Shown piece after piece: positions 56,385 through 56,511 of a stretch of 56,572 bases of DNA. The first letter of the stretch is position 1. Each line of letters starts with the position of its first letter. The notes below the pieces were generated by a model. That model had not been told where the DNA came from. It did not search any database and saw nothing but the letters and a program-made list of their open reading frames with translations. Source of the DNA: a virus (lineage: Duplodnaviria > Caudoviricetes); the IMG/VR virus record IMGVR_UViG_3300009506_000095, positions 1 to 56,572 of that record; one strand, 5' to 3'. Made by a program: the position numbers and the translations under genes.

Positions 56385-56511
56385 ATCGGCTGTGAGTCGT
56401 TTAAGCTGTCTTGCTAAATATTCGGAATTGAACCGAAAACATTCAGATTAGTAGTCTGATACTCTAACCAATTGAGTTATATTCATGTAAGCCCTAACAG
56501 TAACAGCCGAT
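56385..56511 (-). ncRNA. Y-RNA-like RNA F: scaffold plus unpermuted tRNA cloverleaf (anticodon ACU, no CCA)
   Basis: AUCGGCUGU/ACAGCCGAU; UGAAUA/UAUUUA; ACUC-AAUUGGUUA-GAGU; UCAGA-CUACUAA-UCUGA; UUCGG-UUCAAUU-CCGAA. Confidence 0.8.

Follow-up and report, generated by a model that had tools for sequence, protein, structure and literature searches.

The tRNA-like module and the gene downstream of it

The stretch of DNA analysed here (the window), IMG/VR record IMGVR_UViG_3300009506_000095, is a linear contig from a virus; it measures 56,572 bases and is estimated to be 58% complete. On its minus strand it carries an RNA module, called module A below, in which a stem of the Y RNA type surrounds a complete and unpermuted tRNA-like domain. 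Module A heads a series of at least four Y-RNA-like modules, which are located upstream of, and on the same strand as, a 500-amino acid (aa) open reading frame (ORF) with the predicted fold of the Y RNA-binding protein Ro60 (Rsr). The distance from the end of module A to this ORF is 652 nucleotides (nt). The coordinates of all the elements are compiled in Table 1.

A sequence-only reading of the window had placed a complete cloverleaf, its acceptor stem running into a Y-like stem, at positions 56385-56511. Automatic trimming of the flank duplex returned exactly these coordinates, and the cloverleaf was confirmed on the minus strand. Scoring with a tRNA finder had been proposed as a check. ARAGORN called two tRNAs in the window, tRNA-His(GTG) at 53574-53650 and 'tRNA-Ser(ACT)' at 56413-56486 (minus strand), the latter being the 74-nt domain of module A. 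The Rfam tRNA model RF00005 matched this domain with 59.0 bits (E 2.9e-10, model positions 1-71 of 71; gathering score 29), compared with 60.4 bits for tRNA-His.

The domain runs from acceptor-5' through D arm, anticodon arm, variable loop and T arm to acceptor-3'. The acceptor strands AUGAAUA and UAUUUAG form 6 of 7 pairs, with an A1.G72 mismatch and a G3.U70 wobble. U8 and A9 are followed by the D stem ACUC/GAGU, whose loop contains GG. The anticodon stem UCAGA/UCUGA closes a 7-nt loop, CUACUAA, with U33, ACU, A37 and A38. The variable loop is AUGUU, the T stem UUCGG/CCGAA carries the loop UUCAAUU, and the discriminator base is C. The positions engaged in tertiary interactions are present in the sequence (U8, A14, G18 G19, A15 with U48, and G53-C61). 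The G+C content of the domain is low, at 31%. The remaining features of the sequence-only reading, namely the anticodon ACU, the missing CCA and the absence of the long variable arm of Ser tRNAs, were all found as described: the variable loop has 5 nt, and the discriminator is followed by AAGAC and then by stem 2, so that CCA is not encoded. In named phages the nearest DNA covers only the tRNA core (~84% over 56-58 nt) and belongs to ordinary tRNA genes; the body of module A is ~84% identical over 56 nt to tRNA-Lys genes of Proteus phages.

The scaffold around the domain consists of a 9-bp outer stem (stem 1), an internal loop (UAC/ACUC) and a 4+5-bp stem 2, which is connected to the acceptor by unpaired junctions of 3 and 6 nt. 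The 5' side of the internal loop, UAC, is the counterpart of the internal loop in the Rsr-binding stem of YrlA RNAs, as judged from the cmscan alignment of module D, a neighbouring module. The published loop motifs of Y RNAs (GGUCCGA in vertebrates, GNCGAAN0-1G in YrlA) have no literal copy in module A; a YAC/ACUY loop is conserved in its class.

Folding of the 136-nt stretch containing module A gave a z score of -2.88, and 1 of 200 shuffled sequences was as stable. For the whole module, the cloverleaf within the stem (-30.9 kcal/mol) lies 1.1 kcal/mol above the minimum free energy (MFE) structure (-32.0 kcal/mol). As thermodynamics alone does not yield a cloverleaf for the isolated tRNA part, the case for the structure was built on homology and covariation.

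An AlphaFold2 (AF2) model of the 500-aa protein, computed from an alignment of 34 sequences, had a predicted local distance difference test (pLDDT) score of 84.9. Among the Foldseek matches listed for this model, the top 12 were all Ro60/TROVE proteins aligned at full length (~460-516 aligned columns), with E values from 5.8e-11 to 5.9e-7, TMq of 0.57-0.65 and identities of 12-16%. They include 9kop (5.8e-11) and 9l5y of Thermus phage phiLo, Xenopus 1yvp (3.3e-9), human 9nen and Deinococcus 2nvo (9e-8). A ring of HEAT repeats and a vWA domain with a MIDAS motif were found in the model and the alignment, and the vWA DxSxS motif (D304, S306, S308) is invariant in all 34 aligned homologs. Pfam TROVE (PF05731) had no match in the 500-aa protein or in a six-frame search of the whole record. 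The sole Pfam match of the protein was VWA_CoxE at 23.9 bits, below threshold, and its PHROG was phrog_850 ('RNA-binding protein'). A sequence search of the PDB with this protein gave nothing useful, and the assignment was settled by the fold search. On its modelled fold, the 500-aa protein is a divergent phage Ro60. Because it is assigned to Ro60 by this fold, the array upstream of it is taken to be a Y RNA array. The Y-type nature of the scaffold, which had been suggested before, is upheld by this position of the array ahead of a gene whose protein has a predicted Ro60 fold over its full length.

Relatives of the protein are numerous. At least 767 homologs were found with E <= 0.001, nearly all of them metagenomic proteins. 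A tblastn search with Ro60 against 50,697 phage records gave 2 matches at E <= 0.001, both in uncultured or enrichment-culture phages, and among cellular genomes a Ro60 relative was found in 3 contigs of metagenome-assembled genomes only.

Read on the minus strand from the contig end, which lies 61 nt upstream of module A, the order is module A, a long hairpin, modules B, C and D, a folded stretch and the 500-aa ORF. The four modules have a common scaffold, with stem, UACU, stem and GCUUACAUGA on the 5' side and stem, GACUC and stem on the 3' side, and the junction motif UACAUG of module A recurs in B, C and D. The enclosing stem that had been noticed around the acceptor is thus common to three more modules of the window, one of which, module D, matches the YrlA model RF02553 end to end (47.9 bits). 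The gathering score of RF02553 is 69, and modules D (47.9 bits) and B (23.3 bits) are both below it. Module B is permuted: a T arm, a closed acceptor and a D arm are followed by an additional hairpin of 6 bp, whose 7-nt loop is CUGUGAA. This hairpin (56193-56211) is an anticodon-arm look-alike that displays GUG, the anticodon of the phage's own tRNA-His, and it also appears terminator-like in a simple promoter and terminator scan. Over 53400-56572 the scan returned 10 promoter-like sites against 8.1 expected, and none upstream of module A was convincing. The 121 nt between module D and the start of the Ro60 gene (55790-55910, minus strand) are strongly folded (z -4.15; 0 of 200 shuffles as stable) and contain a T-arm-like hairpin; they may be a fifth small RNA or the leader of the Ro60 mRNA. 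A GAUCUUUGA-like motif occurs ~5-15 nt upstream of stem 1 in the window (56515-56530, minus strand) and at loci L002, L010, L008 and L034, and a AAGUUUGG-like motif follows stem 1 in many arrays. These two motifs may be processing or start signals of the array.

Table 1. Elements of module A, the adjoining array and the Ro60-like gene (window coordinates)
Element	Position	Strand	Basis
Module A, Y-type stem around a complete unpermuted tRNA-like domain	56385..56511	minus	R1 match 56385-56510 and trimming of the flank duplex
Stem 1 (outer stem), 5' strand AUCGGCUGU, pairs with 56385-56393	56503..56511	minus	folding
Internal loop, 5' side UAC; class consensus YAC then UG	56500..56502	minus	alignments A2, A4
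Stem 2, 5' strand UGUU-A-GGGCU, pairs with 56398-56407	56490..56499	minus	folding
Junction UAC, part of conserved UACAUG; AUG forms acceptor positions 1-3	56487..56489	minus	A2 alignment
tRNA-like domain, 74 nt, class I, without encoded CCA	56413..56486	minus	ARAGORN, RF00005
Anticodon ACU in 7-nt loop CUACUAA	56450..56452	minus	ARAGORN, RF00005, sequence
3' junction AAGAC, from discriminator C (56413) to stem 2, in place of a CCA tail	56408..56412	minus	sequence
Stem 2, 3' strand AGCUU-A-AACG	56398..56407	minus	folding, RNAalifold
Internal loop, 3' side ACUC; class consensus CG-ACUY	56394..56397	minus	alignments, R1
Stem 1 (outer stem), 3' strand ACAGCCGAU	56385..56393	minus	folding, covariation
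Long hairpin between modules A and B	56319..56378	minus	MFE -23.1 kcal/mol, z -1.40 (weak)
Module B, same scaffold	56155..56313	minus	RF02553 partial 56222-56279, 23.3 bits, E 0.089; fold; R1 20.3 bits
Module C, scaffold motifs without tRNA-like domain	about 56056..56148	minus	sequence; fold z -2.21
Module D, permuted, YrlA-type	55921..56052	minus	RF02553 47.9 bits, E 6.9e-9, model 1-114/114; fold z -4.23
Predicted divergent phage Ro60/Rsr gene, 500-aa ORF	54259..55761	minus	predicted fold

Conservation of the module and its linkage to Ro60

A set of 76 viral loci was collected through relatives of the Ro60 protein. ARAGORN called a total of 286 tRNAs at these loci, and many of the calls upstream of the Ro60 gene were found to sit in a scaffold of the module A type. 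Thirty of the modules were aligned with MAFFT without fitting to any model (alignment A2). From this alignment RNAalifold recovered both scaffold stems (outer stem and stem 2) together with those of the D, anticodon and T arms, with compensatory changes in 24 of 27 pairs. All 6 pairs of stem 2 showed such changes, each in 1 to 16 of the 30 sequences, and the junction TACA was invariant in 30/30.

The window was left out of a covariance model (R1), for which 29 modules from other phages served as the input. On the window this model matched 56385-56510 along its full length (model positions 1-127 of 127), flanks included, and scored 101.3 bits (E 1.9e-25). The free tRNA-His gave 43.1 bits, with the tRNA core only. 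A match was counted as a module at 68 bits or more, a cut of our own choice; clear free tRNAs score at most 57.4 bits, and 5 matches of 58-65 bits remained unclassified. With this cut, 63 matches were obtained in 59 of the 76 loci, all of them on the strand of the Ro60 gene, 61 upstream (median 954 nt, range 33-2385) and 2 downstream of it. Training sequences had come from 28 of the 59 loci and not from the other 31. There were 54 distinct module sequences, 25 of which had not been used in training.

These 54 sequences, related to one another and fitted to the structure of the model (alignment A4), gave figures that are not to be read as probabilities: standard pairs occupy 99.1% of the cells, against 66.3% in shuffled alignments and 29.5-44.4% when the partner strand is slid. 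Of the 21 pairs, 19 show compensatory changes; the observed values were reached by 0 of 500 shuffles. In stem 1 the 7 modelled pairs are formed in 98.7% of the cells, with compensatory changes in all 7. The enclosed cloverleaf is thus a conserved and covarying structure. Its most distant occurrence is in the 595-kb uncultured phage LR756511, where a Ro60 homolog of 29% identity has two modules (77.6 and 74.3 bits) upstream, at distances of ~1.1 and 3.7 kb. For a phage related to Listeria phage P100, abundant non-coding RNAs have been reported upstream of an Rsr-like gene (PMC12282133); in P100 itself R1 scores did not exceed 45.4 bits, the level of tRNAs only.

The covariation bears on the possibility that module A is a decaying tRNA pseudogene, present in a Y RNA array by chance and without a function of its own. 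An odd anticodon, a mismatch at 1:72, a lack of CCA and a G+C content of 31% would fit decay. Against this, every one of the four helices, like the outer stem, is preserved by compensatory changes through the 54 distinct sequences, and in the window the D stem itself is a compensated double change. U33, the purine at 37, A38 and the hallmarks of the T and D loops are conserved, and the module type persists as far as LR756511. A decaying pseudogene is therefore extremely unlikely.

The linkage to Ro60 was also examined without recourse to the protein. All the viral contigs were scanned for the junction motif together with the start of the D arm, which gave 75 stretches; a stretch was considered to have a module when R1 scored 65 bits or more. 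A module was found in 18 of the 75. A Ro60 homolog was present 294-4117 nt downstream on the same strand in 12 of these 18, compared with 0 of the 57 stretches without a module. Among the other six, four have a Ro60 elsewhere in the record (one on the contig of locus L055 and three in gene-encoding records) and one is a complete 244-kb record with a canonical Pfam-TROVE protein. The sixth (L154, record G003) is an orphan: a genome of 43,007 bases with terminal repeats, 100% complete, carries a full module of 97.7 bits. This orphan argues that the module RNA can work with host proteins.

The flanking stem could alternatively be a processing signal of the RNase III type between the units of the array and not a site for Ro60, the tRNA-like RNAs being independent of Ro60. 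The stem is ~18 bp long with an asymmetric internal loop, and phage RNase III sites resemble stems of this kind. The canonical GNCGAA motif is absent, and one complete phage has a module and no detectable Ro60. Yet Ro60 is encoded in 17 of the 18 module records found independently of the protein, and in 12 of these its gene lies on the same strand directly downstream. Moreover, cmscan aligns the scaffold of module D to the whole YrlA model, its Rsr-binding stem included, and the nucleotides of the internal loop are conserved, which a purely structural site does not require. We consider an RNase III-type signal very unlikely as the explanation of the stem.

Anticodon, CCA end and the question of decoding

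Alternatively, module A could be a real tRNA gene of the phage. Its paired flanks would then be no more than the leader and trailer of a precursor, from which RNase P and 3' nucleases would free the tRNA, and after addition of CCA by the host it would be charged and decode AGU. The RF00005 score, the presence of every conserved tertiary nucleotide and the 6 of 7 acceptor pairs are in keeping with such a gene, and the 3 x 6-nt unpaired junction between acceptor and stem 2 could admit RNase P. There is a precedent in the YrlA of M. smegmatis, which in vivo is cleaved by RNase P and acquires CCA (PMC4201824). The 54 modules were compared with a control of 177 distinct ARAGORN calls located outside modules at the same loci.

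In 48 of the 54 modules the anticodon loop has 7 nt, and in these U33 is found in 44, a purine at 37 in 45 and A38 in 45. The remaining loops have 5, 6, 8 or 13 nt; loops of other than 7 nt thus occur in 6/54 modules against 0/177 free tRNAs. As many as 22 different triplets are displayed. A34 outside ACG, which had been pointed out as rare apart from tRNA-Arg(ACG), is indeed rare among the free tRNAs of these related loci (2/177); in the modules it is found in 11/48 (Fisher 8.5e-7). Stop anticodons (UCA or UUA) are present in 6/48 modules and 1/177 free tRNAs (Fisher 4e-4), while G34 shows the opposite trend (2/48 against 43/177, Fisher 1e-3). All the modules are of class I whatever their anticodon, Ser anticodons included. 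The loop CUACUAA of module A is also seen at L010-L012, where the Ro60 is 43% identical. Among module pairs at least 80% identical outside the loop, 6 of 6 differ in the anticodon, with differences at 10/18 triplet positions against 103/703 positions elsewhere (Fisher 9e-5; the sample is small and non-independent). The triplets of the modules are unconstrained while the shape of the anticodon loop is kept.

In the D stem, GCUC/GAGC is found in 49/54 modules against 41/177 free tRNAs (1.5e-19), and the ACUC/GAGU of module A is a doubly compensated variant of it.

The constraint on the 3' end is also relaxed. N73-CCA in tRNA register is encoded in 11/54 modules and in 161/177 free tRNAs, and only 23 of the 54 modules have 6 or 7 acceptor pairs. 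In 26/54 a stable hairpin capped by GNRA or UUCG stands directly after the acceptor 3' strand or replaces it. In this capped morph (L013, L034, L035, L039, L040, L052, L054, L055, L062 and others) the hairpin comes after the T arm, the acceptor is weakly paired and the UACAUG junction is the sole 5' acceptor strand. Module A belongs to an 'open acceptor' morph, with 6 pairs, no cap and no CCA. Its G3.U70 (in 56480-56486 with 56414-56420) was noticed in module A alone among the 54 modules, no systematic count having been made. G3.U70 is the main identity element of alanyl-tRNA synthetase.

These results were set against the proposal of a genuine tRNA. N73-CCA in 11 of the 54 class members and the G3.U70 in the acceptor of module A speak for it. 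On the other side, module A lacks the CCA that is encoded in 161/177 free tRNAs, including the tRNA-His of the window, and has an A34 anticodon that would be a Ser anticodon without a long variable arm; bacterial SerRS needs this arm. The class has stop anticodons, loops of 5, 6, 8 and 13 nt and capped acceptor ends. The flanking stem covaries in 7/7 pairs, which a disposable leader and trailer would not need, and the same scaffold carries permuted modules, which cannot be tRNAs. A genuine tRNA gene is thus unlikely. Module A is not regarded as a decoding tRNA because its anticodon is free, CCA is not encoded and there is no matching aminoacylation identity. That it would not be chargeable, as the sequence-only reading had supposed, is further suggested by the lack of CCA and of the Ser identity element and by the loss, throughout the class, of decoding constraints; the 11/54 relatives with N73-CCA and the G3.U70 in its own acceptor count against this.

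Two other candidates were rejected. A suppressor or recoding tRNA was discarded since ACU does not read a stop codon and many different triplets are found across the class, and a split or permuted tRNA gene awaiting splicing was discarded since module A is not permuted.

Elsewhere in the window, the tRNA-His(GUG) gene (minus strand) is free-standing and encodes its CCA; position 1 is preceded by a G able to pair with C73, and U1.C72 is a mismatch. There is an overlap with the 5' end of a listed ORF (52682-53653), whose real start is probably downstream. At 51416-52672 (minus strand) a 418-aa homolog of adenylosuccinate synthetase is encoded (Pfam 2.2e-44; phrog_1211, '2-aminooxy adenylosuccinate synthetase'), which we take to resemble the PurZ of phages that replace adenine by 2-aminoadenine. 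A metallophosphoesterase gene (50808-51419, plus strand) adjoins it.

Relation to known Y RNAs and proposed role

YrlA RNAs occur in Salmonella Typhimurium, M. smegmatis and mycobacteriophages (PMC4201824; 10.1101/312249), and have been described as having the 5' motif GNCGAAN0-1G and three arms, namely T, acceptor and D (PMC4201824). They resemble a tRNA that has been circularly permuted, with the acceptor loop closed and no anticodon loop present (10.1101/312249). The modules of the window and its relatives are like YrlA in several respects. They are situated upstream of Ro60/Rsr on the same strand, often several in a row, and are built of two parts, a tRNA-like effector domain and a stem, interrupted by an internal loop, in which the 5' and 3' ends pair. 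The D-arm consensus of the module class (UAGCUCA..GGUAGAGC) equals that of the Rfam YrlA model. Permuted YrlA-type modules stand on the scaffold of module A, both in the window (B and D) and in relatives (L048, L043 and L034). Module A itself differs. In YrlA the order is T arm, closed acceptor hairpin and D arm, and the anticodon stem is replaced by the Ro-binding stem, whereas module A is unpermuted, has a full anticodon arm with a 7-nt loop, and is connected to the scaffold by an acceptor stem that is open. RF02553 gave no match to module A even at E values up to 10. The topology had been said to be unlike that of YrlA, and this holds. Module A would work in the manner of YrlA, pairing a stem for Ro60 with a mimic of tRNA. 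As it departs from YrlA in topology and is missed by its covariance model, it is not counted as a YrlA member.

The arm order of module A, in which the Ro-binding stem is attached at the acceptor, is also that of Yrn1 of Deinococcus radiodurans, in which D-like and T arms were modelled in the orientation opposite to YrlA, with a possible 5-bp 'anticodon arm' (PMC4201824). As described there, Yrn1 lacks both a full D arm and a variable arm, its 'anticodon loop' measures 6 nt, and it is less evidently similar to tRNA (PMC4201824); module A, in contrast, has a canonical cloverleaf of 59 bits, the two being compared by description and not by sequence. In Thermus phage phiLo a low-identity phage Ro60 with canonical ring and vWA domain is preceded by two Y-like RNAs, and the protein binds these two RNAs and the host PNPase (PMC12135203). 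The phiLo RNAs Yrl1 and Yrl2 differ from module A in being stem-bulge-stem structures with a CGAA motif, and the sections of that report available to us make no mention of a tRNA-like domain (PMC12135203). With ordinary phage tRNAs module A has in common the cloverleaf, the tertiary nucleotides and the RF00005 score; it differs in the covarying stem around it, the missing CCA, an ACU anticodon without Ser identity and a class that includes non-decoding anticodons. A complete unpermuted cloverleaf in a Y RNA was not found in the accessible portions of published full texts, supplementary tables being outside this search, and in its accessible text a 2026 preprint on bacterial tRNA mimics treats YrlA in passing only. 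The unpermuted, whole-tRNA layout of a Y RNA is apparently a variant without a published description.

Taken together, module A is probably a Y RNA bound by Ro60, in which the effector domain is an unpermuted, non-decoding mimic of tRNA. Several observations weigh against this view. The Ro60 assignment is a predicted fold at 12-16% identity without a Pfam TROVE match. The tRNA domain scores like a real tRNA (59 against 60.4 bits for tRNA-His) with 6/7 acceptor pairs, and 11/54 relatives encode CCA, so that release by RNase P and 3' trimming would be possible. The isolated 74 nt fold better in a non-cloverleaf form (MFE -13.2 kcal/mol, against -10.9 kcal/mol for the cloverleaf; z -1.46). The Rsr-binding motif of YrlA, GNCGAAN0-1G, is not literally present in the 5' strand, though the stem and internal-loop architecture and a related loop are common to both. 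A complete 43-kb phage genome has a module and no Ro60 of either kind detected. The 68-bit cut was self-chosen and leaves out the five matches between 58 and 65 bits, and the counts are of related sequences and not of independent events, with A4 fitted to the structure of the model.

If module A is such a Y RNA, it would be a small non-coding RNA made for binding by the phage's own Ro60. Stem 1, the internal loop and stem 2 would constitute the Ro60-binding part. The effector would be the complete cloverleaf in normal order, joined via its acceptor stem, so that the elbow and the 7-nt anticodon loop face outward. It is probably co-transcribed with the three or four Y-like modules that follow and with the Ro60 gene, and the RNA would stay intact, or be nicked and yet remain paired. 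While tethered to Ro60, the tRNA domain may recruit or occupy a host or phage factor that recognises tRNA. This tethering role is modelled on known Y RNAs that link Ro60 to partners such as PNPase; for YrlA, it has been proposed that an 'unknown factor' might bind the conserved D and T stems (10.1101/312249).

A more specific role can be suggested tentatively. The modules may be Ro60-tethered tRNA baits, in which a tRNA body with a non-decoding and fast-changing anticodon loop occupies, senses or misdirects host enzymes that attack the anticodon loops of tRNAs. The targets would be anticodon nucleases and similar defence effectors during infection, the turnover of anticodons would reflect an arms race, and the unpermuted form would stand in evolution between ordinary tRNA genes and the permuted YrlA. 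This is possible, if doubtful. Hughes et al. (2020) suggested that the domain in YrlA that resembles tRNA might competitively inhibit an anticodon nuclease (PMC7790460). Since YrlA is without an anticodon loop and the module class has one, the idea of a competitive inhibitor becomes directly testable.

YrlA RNAs were reported near Ro60 in 254 bacteria and 22 phages, in a census that started from TROVE-annotated genomes (PMC4201824). For this reason the 2014 census could not have seen the Ro60 clade described here, a large clade of uncultured phages that is missed by the TROVE profile. tRNA finders call its modules as odd tRNAs (Ser-ACU, Asp-AUC, Ile-AAU and suppressors), and such calls can mislead annotation and inferences of recoding in phage metagenomes. 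The presence of permuted and unpermuted mimics side by side on one scaffold bears on the origin of YrlA. With a natural Y RNA that has an intact anticodon arm, ideas on the function of the tRNA-like domain of bacterial and phage Y RNAs, such as a nuclease decoy, a tether for tRNA enzymes and a guide for tRNA repair, become testable.

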